NCBI GenBank assembly: GCA_965153355.1
Contig: OZ231126.1
Location: forward strand, 16,182,001 to 16,246,000
From: Flaccisagitta enflata
Taxonomy: Eukaryota
Direction: 5' to 3'
Length of the DNA: 64,000 bases
In this document: in pieces, positions 18,331 through 58,400 of the stretch
Layout: every line of letters begins with the position of its first letter
How positions within the stretch are numbered: the first letter of the stretch is position 1
Made by a program: the position numbers and the translations under genes
Notes under the pieces: model-generated
What the model saw: the letters and a program-made list of their open reading frames with translations, nothing else
Database searches by the model: none
What the model was told of the DNA's origin: nothing

Positions 18331-18870
18331 TTTTTGGGCAGCGGCCTCGAAGGGGACAAATTCCTGTAGAACACAGGGGGACTTTCGTTCGTCCATTCGT
18401 CCGTCCGTGCGTCCCCCCCCAGGCCCTCTCAGACCTGAAATCTACCTTCTCAGGCCTAAAATCTGCCCTCTCAGGCCTGAAATCTGCCCTCTCAGGCCTG
18501 ATATCTGCCCTCTCAGGCCTTGAATCTGCCCTCTCAGGCCTAAAATTTGCCCTTTCAGACCTGTTACCTGTCCTCTCAGGCCTAAAATCTGCCCTCCCAG
18601 GCCTGAAATCTGCCCTCTCCGATTCAAGGCCTGAGAGGGCAGATTTCAGGCCTGAGAGGGCAGATTTTAGGCCTGAGAGGGCAGATTTCAGGCCTAAGAG
18701 GGCCTGGGGGGGGGCGGACGGACGGACGGATGGACGAACGAAAGTCCCTCTGTGTTCTACAGGACTTCTTCCCCTTCGGGGCCGCTGCCCTGCCTCTCAT
18801 TCCAATTTACAACCATGCAAAGCAGGACAACGGGTATCGCTGACCACGTTTTGCCCTTGGGCGACCTGTT
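18331..18870 (+). mobile_element. HINE-like family A, foldback copy with 21-bp minisatellite
   Basis: TTTTTGGGCAGCGGCC...TCCTGTAGAACACAGGGGGA arm inverted at ~18740-18790; (CCGT)n; GGCCTGAAATCTGCCCTCTCA repeats flip orientation near 18625; 3' AACGGGTATCGCTGACC...GCCCTTGGGC hairpin...TGTT. Confidence 0.85.
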
Positions 18871-19611: not shown

Positions 19612-20050
19612 AAACAAGTCACCCAAGGGTTGCACATGGTCAGCGGTACCCGATGCCCTGCTTGGAGTGATAGCTGAAGACATGGAGTAAGAGCAGGGCA
19701 GCGGCCCCAGAGGGCCGATGTCCTGTAGGACACAGGGGTGAATTTCCATATGTCCTGAGAGGGCATATTTGAGGCCTTTGGAGCAATTTTCCATGATATT
19801 GAATGGGAAATTTGCATTTATTCATCAATTTGCCATGCTATTCAATAGGAATTTCACATTTTTTTCATTTTTCATCAATTTTCCATGTTATTCAATGGGA
19901 AGTTTGCATTTTAACAATTTCTCATGTTATTCAATGGTAATTTGAGGATTGAGAAGCTACAGGGGGGGGGGAGACGGACAAACAGACGTACGTAATGGTT
20001 CACCCCTGTGTCCTACAGGACATCGGCCCTCTGGGGCCGCTGCCCAAAAA
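19612..20050 (-). mobile_element. HINE-like family A with ~40-bp AT-rich core repeats
   Basis: Same termini and long subterminal inverted repeat (GGGCAGCGGCCCCAGAGGGCCGATGTCCTGTAGGACACAGGGGTGAA) as family A; core TTTTCCATGTTATTCAATGGGAA repeats. Confidence 0.8.
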
Positions 20051-22365: not shown

Positions 22366-23168
22366 AAGAGTCGCAAAAGCGTTAGATGGTCAGCGGTAAC
22401 CGAGGCCTGCTTAAGCAGATTGTAGTGGAAGTTGAAGGAGGGAGCAGGGCAGCAGCCTCAAAGGAGTCGATGCACAGCGCAATCTGTAGTGACATTAATG
22501 CCCTGGGGAATTCCCCCATTACGATTATTCATAAGTGAACCGGGCACAGTCTAAAAATATCAGAGTTTGATCCAAGGGAATTCCCCGGGGAATCCCCCGT
22601 TTAGACTAACTTATTTTCTTCATTTCCCAATTTTGATTAAAAAAAACTAAACTAAACGGGGCATATGCCCCGCTAAGTCCCCGTTTAGTCCCTGAATCAT
22701 TTTTTTCATTAACTTTTAACGGCGCATAAAACTAGGCATATCCAAACTCTAACCTTTTTTTACCGGAGACATCAAGGCTTTTGCCCGGGGCATTAATGTC
22801 ACCTTTTTGTACTACAGATTGCGCTGTGCGATGGCCTATATATTCTTTCACACATATAGGGAATTTTCTCCTCCTCTTTCTAGCAATTGAAATTTGGGTC
22901 CTTTGGCTGAGATTTGGGCCGGGAGGCTTGGATGTGGGCCTGGGGGCTTGGATTTGATTCGGGAGGCTGGGATTAATGTCATGAGGCTGGAATTGGAGCC
23001 TTGAGCCTGGGATTAGAGTCTTGAGGCTGGGATTAGGGTCTTGAGGCAGGGAATAGGGCCTTGAGGCTGGGATTTAAGCTTTGAGGCTGGTGTTTGGGCC
23101 TTAAGGCTGAGATTTGAGCCTCAAGGTTGGGATTTAGGCATTGAGGTTAAGATTTGAGGGGGGGGGGA
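22366..23168 (-). mobile_element. HINE-like family A (subtype 3), 5'-truncated, carrying a nested MITE
   Basis: Collinear with the adjacent copy 23178-23653; ~21-bp GAGGCTGGGATTTGGGCCTT core repeats. Confidence 0.75.
22473..22828. mobile_element. Transib/RAG-like MITE (CACAGCG termini, 5-bp TSD)
   Basis: Perfect 18-bp TIR CACAGCGCAATCTGTAGT; TSD CGATG at 22468-22472 and 22829-22833; the empty site GTCGATGACC is visible in the sister HINE at ~23277. Confidence 0.85.
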
Positions 23169-27621: not shown

Positions 27622-28349
27622 TTTTTGGGCAGCGGCCCCAAAGGGGACGAAGTCCTGTAGAACACAGGGGGACTTTCGTTCGTCCGTCCGTCCGTCCGTC
27701 CGTCCGTCCGTCCATCCGTCCGTTCGTTAGTCCCCCCCTTTGTCAGACCCCTCAGGCCTCACATCAGGCCTCTCAAGCCTCAAATCCAGCCTCTCAGGTC
27801 TCAAATCCAGCCTGAACAGGCCTCAAATTTGGCCTCTCAGGTCTCAAATCTGGCCTCTCAGGTCTCAAATCTGGCCTCTCAGGTCTCAAATCTGGCCTCT
27901 CAGGCCTCAAATCTGGCTTCTCAGGCCTCAAATCCAAATTCTCAGGCCTCAAACCTGGCCTCTCATGCCTCAAATTAGGCCTCTCAGGCCTCAAATCAGC
28001 CATCTAAACCTCAATTTATTGCTTCCAGGCTTCAAATCAGTCCTCTGGCCTTTCAAGCCTTAATCCAGCTCTCGCAAGCCTCAAGTCAGCCCTCTTAAGC
28101 TTCCAATCGGCATTCTCAGGGCTTGTATCAGTCTTCTTAGACCTCAGTTTAGGCTCTTGAATGCCTTCAGTCAGCCCTCTATAGCATCTCATCCACTTCT
28201 TCAGGTAGGACGAACGAAAGTCCCCCTGTGTTCTACAGGACTTCGCCCCCTTCGGGGCCGCTGCCCTGCTTCCCCTCACTCCAATTCACAATCACTCAAA
28301 GCAGGGCAACGGGTATCGCTGACCACATATTGCCCTTGGGCGACCTGTT
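27622..28349 (+). mobile_element. HINE-like family A
   Basis: Same termini as 18331-18870; (CCGT)n; 21-bp core CTCAAATCTGGCCTCTCAGGT. Confidence 0.85.
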
Positions 28350-28363
28350 CTCTTTCTTCTTCC

Positions 28364-29227
28364 TTTTTGGGCAGCGGCCCCGAAGGGGACGATGTCCTGT
28401 AGAACACAGGGGACTTTCGTTCGTTCGTTTGTTTGTTTGTTTGTTTATCCATCCCCCCCCTTCGGCCTGGCCTGAAATCTGCCCTCTCAGGCCTGAAATC
28501 TGACCTTTCAGGCCTGGAATCTGCCCTCTCAGGCCTTGAATCTGCCTTCTCAGGTCTGAAATCTACTCTCTCAGGCCTGAAATCTACCCTCTCAGGCCCA
28601 AAATCTACCCTCTCAGGCCTGAAATCTGTCCTCTCAGGCCTGAAATCTGCCCTCTCAGGCGAGAAATCTGACCTTTCAGGCGTGAAATCTGACCTTTCAG
28701 GCCTGAAATCTGCGCTCTGAGGCCTTGAATCTGCCTTCTCAGGTCTGAAATCTATCCTCTCAGGCCTGAAATCTACCCTCTCAGGCCTGAAATCTACCCT
28801 CTCAGGCCTGAAATCTGTCCTCTCAGGCCTGAAATCTGTCCTCTCAGGCCTGAAATCTGTCCTCTCAGGCCTGAAATCTGGCCTCTCAGGCCTGAAATCT
28901 ACCCTCTCAGGCCTGAAATCTGCCCTCTCAGGCCTGAAATCTGTCCTTTCAGGCCTGAAATCTGCCCTCTCAGGCCTGAAATCTGCCCTTTCAGAGTTTG
29001 AATCTGAATAGGCAGATTTCAGGCCTGAGAGGGCAGATTTCAGCACTGTGAGGGCCTGGGGGGGGGGAGATGGACAAACAACAAACAAACAAACAATATT
29101 CCTCTGTGTTCTACAGGACATCGTCCCCTTCGAGGCCGCTGCCCTGCTTCCTCTTACTACAATTCACAATCATGCAAAGCAGGGCAACGGGTATCGCTGA
29201 CCACATATTGCCCTTGGGCGACCTGTT
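28364..29227 (+). mobile_element. HINE-like family A with expanded 21-bp minisatellite
   Basis: Same termini; ~25 units of GGCCTGAAATCTGCCCTCTCA, flipping orientation near 29005. Confidence 0.85.
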
Positions 29228-29637: not shown

Positions 29638-30152
29638 TTGGGCAGCGGCCCCAAAGGGCCGATGTCCTGTAGAACACAGGGGGGAATTTCCAGATGTTCG
29701 TCCTTCCGTCCGTTCTTCCATCCCCCCACCCCCGCTGGCCATCAAGACCACAAATTTCCCCTCCCAGCCCTCAATTTAGTCTCCAAGGCCTCAAATCAGC
29801 CTTCCAGGCTTATAATCAGCCCCCCTCAGCCTCAAATCTGACCTCCAGACCTTCATTTAGCCTCTTAAGTATCAAACCAGCCCTCTGTGGCTCAAATTTG
29901 CCCTCAAAACCTCAAAACTGCTCTCCAAGCCTTAATTCTGCCCTCCAGCCTTCAAATATGCCTTCAGTGGCCTAAATTAGTCATCTAAGGCCTGAAATAT
30001 GCCCCTCAGGACGTCTGGAAATTCCACCCTGTGTTCTACAGGACATCGGCCCTTTGGGGCAACTGCCCTGCTCTCACTTTACTTCATCACTGGATTACTC
30101 CCAGCAGGGCATCGGGTACCGCTGACCATGTGCAATCCTTGGATGACTAGTT
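29635..30152 (+). mobile_element. HINE-like family A (subtype 2)
   Basis: TTTTTGGGCAGCGGCCCCAAAGGGCCGATGTCCTGTAGAACACAGG arm inverted at ~30025-30068; 3' GGGTACCGCTGACC...ATCCTTGGAT hairpin...AGTT. Confidence 0.85.
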
Positions 30153-30727
30153 CTTATCATGATTAGTGAGTCCTTAGTCGTTCCCAGTGATTCGGTGTTT
30201 CGAGCATCTGTTATGTCGATTATCAGTGACAATTCAGCCTCATGGTCGACTTTGCTCGATTCTCATCTTTTCTTCATCAAATGACCGAAGAAAACGTACA
30301 GGTTTTAATTATTATTATTACGTTTATTTTCGTCAACATAAATGCGACAATTCCATACATCAATCATAAAGTCAAGGCACTACAACTAATGTTTGTTCAG
30401 AAAACGGGAAAAAAAAACAGGGGAAAAAACGGGGGGAAAAAAATTAAAGGATTACCGGAGGGGGGAGGAGGCAGGCAATAAGGAAAAATCGACATCTGTT
30501 TCAATGAAGTGATAGAATACCGGTATTGTTCTTACTCTTATTCGCCTTCAGAGCTTTGGTTGCCAATAAATCACATTTTCTTTCCTTCTCTTTGACTACT
30601 ACTAATAAATTTCGTTATTCATTCATTCGACTGGATAGCTAGCGCGTTACTGTTTCTCTCGGAAACTCGCTTTATTTCAAATTAATATTCAATATAAGCA
30701 AAACATAACACACTTTTAAAAAAAATC

Positions 30728-33225
<2,498 letters not shown>

Positions 33226-33617
33226 AAAATTAAAATGATTGAAATTGAATGATTTAACCAAAATAATCATAAAGATATATCATGATTGATATTTATTTGC
33301 ATAAATTTTATTCAAACATGAAAAGGAACCGAATGAAGCTAAGATTAATAACAAAAATATAATGCAAATCACTGAAAATTTTATTTTTGGTAATTGACAG
33401 GGAGCCTTTTGAAATTCTGAGATTGTATAGAAAATGAAAAAATGAGAAAACAAAAAACATAATTCTCTTCCAAAATCGATTACAAAGAGAACTATGTCTT
33501 TGGAAATGCAAAATTTCCTTGCATTTGAGAGTCTTAGAATTTCAACGGCAAGAACAAACAAAAAAATGTAAGCAAAATTTGATTGAAAACTTTGATTTTC
33601 TTGCTTTTCTCACATGA

Positions 33618-33859
33618 CACCTTGATCTGGGGGCTGAGAAAAACCCGAGATGAATCTCAATAGCTTAAATTACATGAAAAGCATACTTCTAGTTGCCCTA
33701 GTGAGATGAAATTTTACATGAAGAAAGCGGATGGTTTTGCAGAGCTTCAGTTAAAATTTCATCTTACTGGGTTAACTAGAAGTATGCTTTTCATGTAAAT
33801 TAAGCTATTGAAACATGCTAGATTCATCGCGGGTTTTTCTCAGCCTCCAGATCAAGGTG
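33618..33859. mobile_element. Palindromic Transib/RAG-like MITE (CAC termini, 5-bp TSD, 12-RSS-like ends)
   Basis: TSD CATGA at 33613-33617 and 33860-33864; ~100-bp inverted arms; both ends read CACCTTG-N12-AGAAAAACC. Confidence 0.85.
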
Positions 33860-34404
33860 CATGAATTGCATAGTTGAAATTACTTTTGAGGTTGGAATAT
33901 GATAGAAACGTATAAACCAAGTGTCCTAAGAGACAATTTATCTTTTAACATCATTATTGCACCATTATTGTCAAAAAAATTATGCAAAAAGTATGGTGAA
34001 ACACTTAGTTTTCCTTCAAAAATTTGCCGTCATACGAATGTACTCCATGTGGGAGAAAATTTCAAGGTGCATCAGGATGTTCATAGGAGACAACAACTTT
34101 TGATGAATGCCGGATACATCATCACGCCGTGGGGAAGGCCTCTGAGGCCTTTGTAGGTTGCATTGAATGACCGATGGCATGGCTCTGACTTGTTGGAGAC
34201 TTCCTCTATTTTCTTTTTCATTTGAATAAACAAATCGCTCTTCAAAATATGTTTGAAAATAAACAGATTATATCCATTTCACAATGTTTCTTGCCTTACA
34301 TCTTTTAAGAGTAAAGATTTACATTTCCTGTAAAATTTCCACTGGTTCGAAAGGTCGTTTGAACGGTTTTAGTCAATTTTCATCCAGCAAAGAGATAACA
34401 ATAT

Positions 34405-36284: not shown

Positions 36285-36986
36285 AAAAAAACAAGTGACG
36301 CGGGGTTACAATGTCGTTGCGGACGGGTGGACGGGGGCATCCAACCCCCATCCACCCCCCCCCCAACCCACCCCCGACATTCAAACAAGCACAAATTGTC
36401 ATCCAAGGATCGCACATGGTCAGCAATGCCAGATGCCCTGCTTGGAGTGATTAGCTGAAGAATTGGAGTAAGAGCAAGGCAGCGGCCCCAAAGGGCCGAT
36501 GTCCAGGAGGGCATATTTTCCATGATATCCTACGGGAATTTTGCATTTTTTCAATTTCTTGTCGATTTGCCATCTTATTCAATGGGAATTTTACATTTTT
36601 TTCAGTTTTCATCAATTTTCCATGATATTCAAAGGGAAACATGCATTTTTTATTCTTTTTTGGTAAATTTTCCATGTTATTTTATGGGAATTTTGCATTT
36701 TGTCAATTTCCCATGTTATTCAATGGGAATTTGAGGCTTGAGAAGCTAGGGGGGATGTACAGACGGACGGACGGACCATCATATGGACAGACGTATGGAA
36801 ATTCACCCCTGTGTCCTACAGGACATCGGCTCTTTGAGGCCGCTGCCTAAAAAGTATCTTAAACGCTCGTTTTTCCACTTTCCAATTCGATGACCCTGGA
36901 CCAACAGACCAACGGACCAACAGACCAACGGACCGACGGACGGACGGACAAAGCCTCTTATAGAGTTGCGTGTCCGTAACTAAAAA
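36285..36986 (-). mobile_element. HINE-like family C split by a nested family A copy
   Basis: 36285-36392 plus 36853-36986 reconstitute the element at 12406-12654. Confidence 0.75.
36393..36852 (-). mobile_element. HINE-like family A with ~40-bp AT-rich core
   Basis: Collinear with 19612-20050; inserted in an A-run of the family C host with no obvious TSD. Confidence 0.8.
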
Positions 36987-48674: not shown

Positions 48675-49497
48675 GTAAGTGGTGATTTATATCTATTATC
48701 TTTTCATCTTTACATCCCAATACCTTGATATCGTTTATCAAAAGAGGATGCATTAATTGGACATCTCTTGGCCTTGGCCTTTTTTTTTTCTTTTTGCCAT
48801 GAAATAATCATTTTTTCGGGAAGAAGTTATGATGCAATTTTTCCATAATCCCAAATTGTTACAATATTAGTATGGTTTAATGTAAATGTTATTTCTATCA
48901 ATAAATTGATTTAGATGAACATCAATGTATGAAGGTTCATTCATCTGTGAACTCAACTCTTGCTCTTTTTTTTCTCGATCTTAAATCCTAGAACGGTTGA
49001 ATTTCACTGCCTCATTTGTATAACGCAGTCATTCAAAATTACCGCTCACATAGAAAAACTCCATAAATTGGTTTCCCTATGAAAGTATATTCAATTAGAA
49101 TCAACAATAACGGTATGATGTATTCGTTGGTTTATATGTCTTAAAAAAAGACGGTATATCGCTTTCTTAGCATCGTATTTGATCGCGTCCTGTTCGTTTT
49201 TACTGTTTTGTGCGCTTTCCCGTGCACTCGGAGTTCGGAACAAACCCGGCCCGAGAGTGAGAATCGAATGTCATGTCTCCTCCTCCCCCTCCTGCCCGAT
49301 GATCAAGTTTTATTCTAAGCCCGGCGGCCGTTCGAACCCGCCATTCATTCCTCTGTGGTGATCGTTCATCGGGCCGCTATTCGTTCATCTATGTGTCTTT
49401 ATCCATTCATCAATCCCCAACGATTGGCGGTTCTCTCTCTTCGTCTATCCTCGTCGATCCTTCAGCTAAGTTACGTCTATCTTGTCTGTTTGAAGTG

Positions 49498-54032
<4,535 letters not shown>

Positions 54033-55462: not shown

Positions 55463-58400
55463 TTATGAGTCCAATTCCAGCCGCACGAGCTTCGTGCGGT
55501 CTTTCGTCACGATCTTTCCATCTTAGCGCTGGATGTGAGCTCCTCCGGACATGTGTGGCTGACGAACCACGCCATGACACGTCCTAAGCTCCACCAGACG
55601 AGGTAGTTACCACCATGACGACGACACCATGTCATCAACCTGCAAAGTCTCTCTCGGATCTCGACCATTTGCTTCGCGCATGAAGAAGTGACAAATATTC
55701 GACCCTCCATGATTTCCAAAATATATCCACACGCGATTGCCACGCCTCCGTGAATCTTCGCGGAGTCGGCGGCAGAATTGACGCCTTGTTGCACCAGATC
55801 CAGAGGGCATGGCCGGATGTTGATGGATTGAGGATATGATTCTGTGTAAGGGCCTCAGAGTCATTTGGATCATCGCTGAGCGCTGTTAGAGGGCGATTGA
55901 GAATTCCTTCAGCCGACGACGGCAGTGTTGAAGGCGTCGACGTGGAGGATGGCGCCAGTTGAGATGGAGGCAAGATGGCGCTTAAAGAGAGCGACGATTC
56001 TCTCCCACACCCCTCCATAGTGGGGTGTTCTCGGCGTGATAAAATCCCACCGAAGGCCGCGCCGCTGCAATTCGGGAGTTGACGAGCGGTTCCAAGCTTC
56101 CATTTCCTTCTTGAGGATGTTGTTACGCCGACTAGATTCGTTCCACAATCTGATGTGAAACGGCGGATTCCTGGGCGCCTTGCTGCAAAGCGGATGATTG
56201 CATTTACCATCGCATCGCTGACATGTTGAATTCCACATGGACGGCGCGTGACACGAAACAGGTGAACACTGCGATCCACACCTTGTGATCAGCACGCCCG
56301 TTCATTTTTACCATGAAATGCCCCATGACGTCCAATCCAGTCTCTGCAAAGACAGGCGCCGGATTGACGCGATTTGATGGAAGATTGGCCATTTGCTGAT
56401 TTGCGTTCTTTTTAAAGTTCTTCTGGCATCTAAAGCACGTGTTGATGACGCTCTTGACGGCCTGAAGACCTTTTGTAATCCACACAAATTGGCGTAATTG
56501 GCACAATGTAAGCTTTGCACCCGCGTGAAAATCATTATGATGATAATGGCGAATTAATGATTTCACATTCTCGTCTTTGGCGGCAGGATGAAGGGAAATT
56601 TAGCGTCGTGAGAGATGTCGGCATTCTCCAATCGACTGCCGACGCGAAGGATGCCGTAATTGTCGACGAAAGGGTTCAGCTTCCGCATCTCCTTGTTCTT
56701 TATGATAAAGTCACGACGGCTTTCTGGCTTGAAGACTTTTCCCAATTCCAATTGTTCGAAGACGTCAGAATAATGCTGCCGCTGCATTGACTTGACGAGC
56801 TGTTTGCGCGCCTCCTCCACGACGTCTTGCGTCACTTCCCGGTTTGGGAAGGAGATCTCTTGCTGCTCGTGTCTTCGCCCTTGGATACGCTCTCCACCTT
56901 TGACTGCGATGAGAACCATGCCGATGAATCCGCAATTTCTGCATCCATTTTCCCTAGTTGCTGCAAGAAGTATCGCGTCAGCCACTTGTTTCTCTTCACT
57001 CTCAGCCGCATACAGAGCGGCGACCTGTGCAGAAATAGGGCACGTCGCGATGTTCGTCTTTGGCCATTGATCTTCGGGAAGACGCAAAAATGCAGGGCCG
57101 TGATGGAATTGACGCCATTCCAACGTCTTCATGGGCCTGGATGCCTCTGCTGCAGTGGTCCGCCGGGTTGTTTGACGAGTCAACCCAGCGCCACTGCTGA
57201 GGACTGCACCCACTATGGACCTTGAGACGCATTGGCGACAATACAGGCCTGTTTTGCCGGGATTAAAATCATCTTCAGTGCAGATTCAGAATCAGACCAA
57301 AATCGACGACGAGATTGTCCGTTGATGGTCCTTCCGACTTGCCGCCGCTTTGAGCTGGCACTGCTTTTTTCTGCGGATACACCGAATACGGGAACGCTAA
57401 GTTGATGAGAATGCTTGGATTGAGGATGACGTGAGATTTGGAGGTATGAATGAAATGTGAACATCTCCATCTCGGTTGACTTGACGTCGATATGCAACTG
57501 CTCCATATCCGCCTTTTGGAGCTGCATCGCAAAATAACTCGATTGTGACTTCCGCAATGTCGCTATTGTCGACGCCGCCATTCCACCAGCGCTCAATTCG
57601 ATATTGTTGTAGAAGAGGCCAAGATGAAGAGAAGTGGATGAAAGATTCCCACGCTCTCTTCCAAGGCGTATCCCACTTCCACTTCCTCTGTGGACGACAG
57701 AGTTGAAGATGTCGTCTACCGATGTATGCGCTTGGGCTCCAAAAACCCAATGGATCGTAAAGTCTGGCTAGCATAGAGACCAATTGACGAGGTGTTTTTG
57801 CTCTAAGAGTTTTGAATTCTTCACATCAGCAGATGAAGATGAAGACGTCTTCCGTCGGAAGCCATGAGACGCCCAACACCTTCGTCGGCGCATCATCTTG
57901 CTTATCTGAAATAGGGATTGGCACATTTGGATCTCCATCCATCAATTGCCGCGCATTGCTCTCATTTCACAAGATCCATCCTGCCTTAGTTATCACACAT
58001 TGAATCACTCTTAGTTGCAGTAAGTCACGAATGAATCCCCACTCTACCCCCGCTGCCGACGTAAAAAACCATAGTGCACAAGATCGAGACGTTGTAGGGA
58101 TATTTGGGCCGGATTACTTCAGCATGCTTTCTGACGGTGAAAGACGTGACGAATGAGCTGGATTGGCTAATGAAGACATGTGATAAGAACAGATTCAAAA
58201 TGGCTTCAGAGAGTACTGTCTTTGGAACTAAAGAACTGAATGATCAGCGGCTGCCAGGATGGACGCTGATCTGTGGAAGAACGCCTTTATGTCACACATA
58301 AAGGCGATCTTCCACTGACGAAAACGCATGAGGATGTCCATTAAGCTATTCATCAAATTTGGACCTCCGACGAGCAAATCATTGAGTGAGATCCCGTCGG

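Follow-up and report, generated by a model that had tools for sequence, protein, structure and literature searches.

A high-copy foldback MITE with RSS-like, probably Transib-type ends in Flaccisagitta enflata

Introduction

A short inverted-repeat element lies in a 64,000-nt stretch of the Flaccisagitta enflata genome; the whole of the stretch that was analysed is called the window here. Each end of the element carries a CAC heptamer, a 12-nt spacer and a block resembling the nonamer of the vertebrate RSS. Two questions arise from this locus. Which superfamily does the element belong to, and does the nonamer-like block have a role of its own? An earlier note on this DNA had described a non-autonomous MITE derived from a Transib or RAG-like transposon, with symmetric 12/12 signals that were relevant to RSS origin.

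Sources available to us as excerpts are marked as such. Among eukaryotic DNA transposon superfamilies, 5-bp duplications have been described as unique to Transib (Kapitonov and Jurka 2005, PMC1131882, excerpt). Its 38-bp ends consist of a CACAATG heptamer, a variable spacer and a AAAAAAATC-type nonamer, and an A-rich second box is conserved over 21 Transib families (PMC1131882, excerpt). In several families the 5' end is 12-like and the 3' end 23-like, and non-autonomous TransibN families occur in mosquito, fruit fly and sea urchin (PMC1131882, excerpt). A preference for GC-rich targets was reported (PMC1131882 and PMC4840297, excerpts). Duplication length and terminal bases vary within Transib (2026 preprint, excerpt). 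Both features can therefore support a classification and cannot settle one.

Results

The element is a 242-bp foldback with RSS-like ends

The element occupies window positions 33618–33859 (242 bp) and is flanked by a perfect 5-bp duplication, CATGA. The left end reads, 5' to 3', CATGA, CACCTTG, ATCTGGGGGCTG, AGAAAAACC, and the right end reads GGTTTTTCT, CAGCCTCCAGAT, CAAGGTG, CATGA. When the 28-nt ends were compared, a single mismatch was found, G versus A, in the spacer. The element termini are CAC...GTG, and the third terminal base is C. Re-reading the sequence thus bore out the earlier description of CACCTTG, exactly 12 nt and AGAAAAACC at both ends within a perfect CATGA TSD. The earlier match counts (heptamer 5/7, nonamer 8/9, exact spacer) also held. 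The heptamer match consists of CAC and TG only: CACCTTG and CACAGTG agree in CAC and the final TG, as in the Transib consensus, and differ at the two middle positions. The features of the element are as follows.

33613–33617, no strand: target site duplication, left copy, CATGA (sequence; a single copy is kept in empty-site contigs)
33618–33859, no strand: whole foldback MITE, 242 bp (sequence, inverted repeats, fold, contig ends)
33618–33624, + strand: heptamer-like terminus CACCTTG, 5/7 to CACAGTG with CAC intact (sequence)
33625–33636, + strand: 12-nt spacer ATCTGGGGGCTG, one mismatch to the right-end spacer (sequence)
33637–33645, + strand: nonamer-like AGAAAAACC, 8/9 to ACAAAAACC (sequence, CAC-site scan)
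33618–33723, + strand: foldback left arm (inverted-repeat pairs, fold)
33724–33744, no strand: 21-nt centre separating the arms (inverted-repeat search)
33745–33859, − strand: foldback right arm, with 8 bases more than the left arm, at 33812–33819 (sequence, inverted repeats, fold)
33832–33840, − strand: nonamer-like AGAAAAACC, forward-strand letters GGTTTTTCT (sequence, CAC-site scan)
33841–33852, − strand: 12-nt spacer ATCTGGAGGCTG, forward-strand letters CAGCCTCCAGAT (sequence)
33853–33859, − strand: heptamer-like terminus CACCTTG, forward-strand CAAGGTG (sequence)
33860–33864, no strand: target site duplication, right copy, CATGA (sequence, empty sites)

The terminal inverted repeat spans 40 nt at 95% identity, and a second arm pair of 67 nt at 90% lies directly inward. 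Together the foldback arms match each other over about 106 nt. The 242-bp element folds as one long hairpin of −97.9 kcal/mol, compared with −22.5 in shuffles (z = −22.5). The MITE is a near-perfect foldback without coding capacity.

Over about 106 nt each arm is a copy of the other, and the MITE therefore reports only one end of its parent, whose second end could well differ. The 12/12 symmetry is accordingly a by-product of the foldback form and does not count as two observations. The symmetric 12/12 signals of the earlier note had to be given up as an independent feature, since the arms duplicate each other.

The MITE is a mobile, high-copy insertion in an older repeat

Contigs from four public runs (X1, X2, X3, X6) were placed on window positions 33300–34200, 901 bp with the host repeat included. 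Sequence words of this stretch occurred in small shares in 18 marine metagenome runs; of these 18, X3 and X6 were used as evidence. On the 901-bp stretch (MITE plus host repeat), X1 gave 4612 contigs, X2 5418, X3 1843 and X6 34. Contigs of other MITE copies begin exactly at 33618 (pieces 4, 14, 15 and 19 among those listed). In X3, 13 contigs carried unrelated sequence 5' of 33618, and one X6 contig left into unrelated sequence beyond 33859.

Empty sites were also recovered. The best-supported joint ran from 33612 to 33862 with 2 letters between, and was seen in 12 contigs from all four runs. Its net loss is 247, that is 242 + 5, the element plus one CATGA. The inserted letters were listed for ten MITE-spanning joints, whose net loss was 247 in four cases, 248 in two, 246 in two, 252 in one and 392 in one. 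An eleventh joint, from 33613 to 33861 (3 contigs), skipped exactly 247. A net loss of 247 at paralogous empty sites fixes the target duplication of this insertion, one copy, at 5 bp. The MITE is a real mobile, multi-copy and high-copy insertion. The empty sites and the ends of other copies at 33618 and 33859 confirmed the earlier view of a non-autonomous MITE as a multi-copy inverted-repeat element.

This copy landed within an older, high-copy AT-rich repeat (about 33424 to 34031/34034), of which many paralogous copies are empty at this point. Contig depth drops about 1000-fold past 34043. No terminal inverted repeat was seen in the two parts of the host repeat, which are listed here.

33424–33612, no strand: host repeat, left part, AT-rich, high-copy (high depth, loose ends at 33423, joints 33612 to 33862)
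33865–34034, no strand: host repeat, right part (loose ends at 34031 and 34034)

Among the best-supported 40 of 139 variant positions, none fell in 33618–33698 and one, 33829, lay near the right end, so the heptamer, spacer and nonamer could not be separated in this way.

Contig collections were searched for further copies. Neither viral nor metagenome contigs contained a locus of the internal 20-mer common to both arms, and the 28-nt end with one free base had 0 loci in metagenome contigs. The 18-mer gave 18 loci in prokaryote genome contigs, and heptamer–N12–nonamer gave 42 loci in viral contigs. All 60 were single-ended chance matches; the longest extension by BLAST of the MITE against them was 31 nt at 87%. 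These patterns revealed no MITE copy in any of the three collections, viral, metagenome or prokaryote.

End anatomy points to the Transib superfamily

The window was scanned against Pfam with 264 ORFs, comprising all 98 stop-to-stop frames of at least 120 aa and all 166 higher-complexity frames of 70–119 aa; 115 low-complexity frames of at least 70 aa were left out. Neither RAG1 nor a DNA transposase was found in the 264 ORFs. The only real matches in the window were Bel/Pao pieces (DUF1759, Peptidase_A17, Integrase_H2C2, DUF5641) and C2H2 zinc fingers. As no coding capacity was found in the element and no transposase among the scanned window ORFs, the classification rests on end anatomy and the literature. 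From these we infer that the element is probably a foldback MITE, high-copy and non-autonomous, that belongs to the Transib superfamily (RAG1-like DDE transposases). Its CAC...GTG ends and 5-bp duplication fit Transib or RAG-like elements, and no other superfamily compared in the literature. The derivation from a Transib or RAG-like transposon in the earlier note therefore kept its support from the CAC termini and the exact 5-bp duplication; no Transib or RAG1-like gene accompanied it in the window.

The Transib features were compared one by one. The 5-bp duplication is present as CATGA on both sides and in the empty sites (one copy). The termini are CAC...GTG with C at position 3, and contigs from other copies begin at that C as well. 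The bipartite RSS-like end is present as CACCTTG, 12 nt and AGAAAAACC, with a spacing of 12 versus about 23 in the published consensus. The target CATGA, 2/5 G or C, lies in an AT-rich repeat and does not itself show the GC-rich preference reported for Transib, though one site is too few to establish a preference.

Other cut-and-paste groups were considered. The MITE might come from hAT5, from Ginger2 or from a CACTA/Chapaev/Mirage-type element with an unusual duplication length, its RSS likeness being chance. We regard such an origin as unlikely. hAT5 is defined by 5-bp duplications, according to the title of a cited reference, and the MITE has that length; hAT termini always have G at position 3 (PMC1131882, excerpt), whereas the third base here is C. 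Ginger2 makes duplications of 4 or 5 bp, but its termini are TGT...ACA and do not match CAC...GTG. The EnSpm–Mirage–Chapaev–Transib clade has CA..TG ends and duplications of 2–5 bp. The CA...TG ends of CACTA/EnSpm, Chapaev and Mirage fit the MITE, but CACTA, Chapaev and Mirage give 2–4 bp (2026 preprint, excerpt), and the empty sites here give exactly 5. In favour of another group, duplication length and termini are labile (2026 preprint, excerpt), and no transposase in the window is linked to the MITE.

The inverted-repeat scan bears on the same point. It sought CAC...GTG with at least 12/14 terminal bases paired and a perfect direct repeat. For a direct repeat of 5 bp the window yielded 2 elements, compared with a mean of 0.0 over 20 shuffles. 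With 3-, 4-, 6-, 7- or 8-bp direct repeats it found no element in the window, and the result at 3 and 4 bp speaks against the other groups. When the criteria were relaxed to tolerate one mismatch in the duplication, 5 candidates emerged versus 0–3 in block shuffles, and the three extra candidates were treated as noise. Overall, the element fails one defining feature each of hAT5, Ginger2 and CACTA–Mirage–Chapaev and none of the testable ones of Transib. It is best filed as Transib-type.

A RAG-like parent would explain the same ends. The MITE would then derive from a RAG1L–RAG2L transposon whose transposase had a genuine nonamer-binding domain, of the sort suggested for the acorn worm family A RAGL, and the block at 12 bp would mirror that domain. 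RAGL transposons likewise end in CAC heptamers and make 5-bp duplications (Martin et al. 2023 preprint, excerpt), a combination that the MITE has but that does not discriminate, being common to Transib. Non-autonomous RAGL elements with flanking duplications exist in pearl oyster and several deuterostomes (Martin 2020). The ends of PflRAGL-A contain an AT-rich nonamer-like block (Martin et al. 2023 preprint, excerpt), and the nonamer match of the MITE is 8/9 at exactly 12 nt. However, the 264 window ORFs scanned contained no domain of RAG1L or RAG2L (kelch). RAGL elements are reported to be low-copy, whereas thousands of contigs were placed here, on a stretch that includes the host repeat. The ends of RAGL-B consist, in an excerpted account, of the heptamer and an adenine-rich TR2 block of 9–10 bp beside it, with no nonamer; judged by this verbal description only, the MITE differs, with ATCTGGGGG adjoining its heptamer. 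No RAG-like sequences were found in Arthropoda (Martin 2020), which would count against a RAGL parent if the very microsatellite-rich host genome were that of a crustacean. We consider a RAGL origin quite unlikely, and less likely than a Transib origin.

A second CAC/5-bp element lies about 11 kb away

The other element found by the strict scan is unrelated to the MITE. It is a CAC...GTG element of 356 bp at 22473–22828 (22468–22833 with its repeats), about 11 kb from the MITE and represented by one copy. Its perfect 18-nt ends, CACAGCGCAATCTGTAGT, include the heptamer CACAGCG, 6/7 to the RSS, and its perfect 5-bp repeat is CGATG. One further base could be added to the inverted repeat, in which case the duplication would be 3 bp. 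A shared second box, GACATTAATGCCC, is located 11 nt from the heptamer at the left end and 21 nt at the right. The right end has a 10-bp insert, ACAAAAAGGT, containing ACAAAAAGG, which matches the nonamer at 7/9 at 11 nt. This one-helical-turn asymmetry of the ends recalls the 12/23-like Transib ends (PMC1131882, excerpt) as well as PflRAGL-A, whose ends are asymmetric by 10 bp (Martin et al. 2023 preprint, excerpt).

A second CAC...GTG element with a perfect 5-bp duplication suggests that the superfamily is active and diverse in this genome. A four-end alignment showed ATCTG just past the heptamer in both elements (33625–33629 and 22482–22486), offset by 2 nt. The shared ATCTG is possibly a common transposase contact, or chance.

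The nonamer-like block and the role of chance

In the window the pattern of the 28-nt end occurred 2 times, and 100 shuffles yielded 0 occurrences. The two strands of the window together hold 1736 CAC sites, of which 4 have at least 8/9 to ACAAAAACC at a spacer of 11–13 or 22–24. Two of these are the ends of this MITE, and two are in an ACAACA microsatellite. The analytic chance of a nonamer-like match is about 9e-4 per CAC site, six spacings together. This figure of about 1 in 1000 is weakened, because the match was chosen after the fact from a very large scan. Since both ends were copied from one arm, their agreement says nothing about selection on the nonamer-like block. A search of published text for the MITE end sequences listed two papers, with an unrelated primer-type match.

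The MITE could thus be of Transib type while its AGAAAAACC block has no role of its own. The block would then simply belong to a long arm that was duplicated recently, and it would resemble the RSS nonamer by coincidence. We take this to be a serious possibility, somewhat short of an even chance. The arms match over about 106 nt, far past the block, and the finding was picked post hoc from the scan. The ends of HzTransib also lack a nonamer (PMC4840297). The low chance of about 9e-4 per CAC end argues on the other side, as does the A-rich second box conserved in 21 Transib families (PMC1131882, excerpt). So does ACAAAAAGG in the second CAC/5-bp element, with 7/9 at 11 nt from the heptamer at one end.

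HzTransib transposes a 12/12 RSS pair and responds to whether a nonamer is present and where it lies (Carmona 2016, PMC4840297). Its protein is without most of the nonamer-binding domain, and its own ends have little or no nonamer similarity (PMC4840297). Transib ends thus need not carry a functional nonamer. Most likely, by analogy, the A-rich block at 12 bp from the heptamer is the distal contact of the transposase, namely the second conserved box of Kapitonov and Jurka. It is not a signal for a V(D)J-like recombinase.

A functional 12-RSS was considered and rejected. The motif is present (5/7, exactly 12 nt, 8/9), but the signals form the two inverted termini of a multi-copy insertion of 242 bp, and both are of the 12 type. 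No immunoglobulin-like domain was found in the scanned window ORFs, which gave no sign of antigen-receptor-like genes near the MITE.

A further reading goes beyond a distal contact. The MITE, and perhaps also the second CAC/5-bp element, would be substrates of an invertebrate RAG1-like transposase that truly reads the nonamer at RSS spacing, with a GRPR/K-type nonamer-binding domain. The evidence for such a live transposase in this animal is the motif, and we find the proposal very doubtful.

Other sequences in the window

Bel/Pao remains were present in two places. At 49303–51804 (+), an 833-aa open frame has a weak DUF1759 (gag-like) match; no homologue of this frame was found at E <= 1e-5 in a large protein collection. 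At about 55500–57900 (−), broken frames carry Peptidase_A17, Integrase_H2C2 and DUF5641. Bel/Pao is not known outside animals. The Bel/Pao domains in the window and the presence of the repeat in marine plankton metagenomes agree with the animal host implied by the earlier note, which had spoken of an invertebrate genome.

C2H2 zinc-finger frames occur at 30698–31307 (+), about 2.3 kb upstream of the MITE, with zf-H2C2_2 at E 1e-16. No other likely host-gene exon was seen in the window. A family with long inverted ends is located at 18340–18786, 19700–20041, 27631–28262, 28373–29140, 29650–30058 and 36481–36844. Its ends are of the AGCGGCCCC.AAGGGG...GATGTCCTGTAGAACACAGGGGG type and enclose arrays of 20–21-bp satellite units of the GGCCTGAAATCTGCCCTCTCA type. 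The microsatellite load is extreme: 126 tandem-repeat rows were recorded in 64 kb, with many perfect di-, tri- and tetranucleotide arrays of 100–600 bp. The tRNA and Rfam scans of the whole window gave no match.

Discussion

We propose that the MITE was formed and moved in the following way. It would stem from an inverted duplication of about 110 bp of one transposon end, which would account for the same signal at both MITE ends. A transposase supplied in trans would bind about 30 terminal bp of each arm, by analogy with HzTransib and RAG. By the same analogy, it would nick at the CAC terminus, form a hairpin on the flanking DNA and free the element. Insertion would occur with a 5-bp stagger, and repair would give the CATGA duplication.

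The closest counterparts are TransibN1-N3_AG, TransibN1_DP, TransibN1_DM and TransibN1_SP, which are short, non-coding and present in many copies, with CAC-heptamer ends, an A-rich second box and exact 5-bp duplications (PMC1131882, excerpt). Their duplications were proven through insertions into other repeats, as for this MITE (PMC1131882, excerpt). In the published Transib consensus, about 23 nt separate the A-rich box from the heptamer, or one end is 12-like and the other 23-like (PMC1131882, excerpt), whereas this MITE has 12 at both. Compared by description only, and on an excerpt, this MITE also differs from the TransibN families in being a foldback of one end and in its target, which is not GC-rich.

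HzTransib of Helicoverpa zea resembles the putative system in its essential CAC terminus, its nick-hairpin cleavage and its invariably 5-bp duplications. It differs in being autonomous with a known transposase and in the low nonamer similarity of its own ends, whereas this MITE is known without a protein. HzTransib is said to have been studied both biochemically and structurally, by Hencken in 2012 and Liu in 2019.

PflRAGL-A of Ptychodera flava shares a near-RSS heptamer, an AT-rich nonamer-like block and 5-bp duplications with the MITE (Martin et al. 2023 preprint, excerpt). PflRAGL-A has a conserved TR2, a 10-bp length asymmetry of its ends and RAG1L and RAG2L genes, and is low-copy (same preprint, excerpt); this MITE has no genes, symmetric ends and a very high copy number. 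The vertebrate 12-RSS (CACAGTG, 12 nt, ACAAAAACC) is similar in CAC, the 12-nt spacer and the 8/9 nonamer, including a run of five A's. In contrast, the heptamer of the MITE matches at 5/7 only, and its signals face each other 162 nt apart as transposon ends and flank no gene segments. The 12/12 pair of this MITE would break the vertebrate 12/23 rule.

RSS-like Transib ends, a 12/23-like asymmetry and non-autonomous Transib families were already published in 2005 (PMC1131882, excerpt). As RSS-like Transib ends are long established, the novelty of this MITE is small. Its bearing on RSS origin, which the earlier note had stressed, is small as well, both the ends and the asymmetry having been described in 2005 (PMC1131882, excerpt). 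With the MITE, a class known since 2005 gains one probable Transib-type family, from a marine animal that has been little studied. The MITE will help in annotating the repeats of that genome, and it is an example of a putative Transib-type end with the A-rich box at 12 and not about 23 nt.

More would follow if this genome encoded a RAG1-like transposase that had both these ends and a real nonamer-binding domain. With its thousands of copies, the family would then offer a natural experiment to learn which positions of the ends are under constraint, and the 10-bp end asymmetry of the neighbouring element would bear on the origin of the 12/23 rule. Recognition of heptamer, 12 nt and nonamer, together with a one-helical-turn asymmetry, would be a live transposon system in a marine invertebrate beyond the few known cases. 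It would offer natural substrates in abundance for work on how the 12/23 rule came about.
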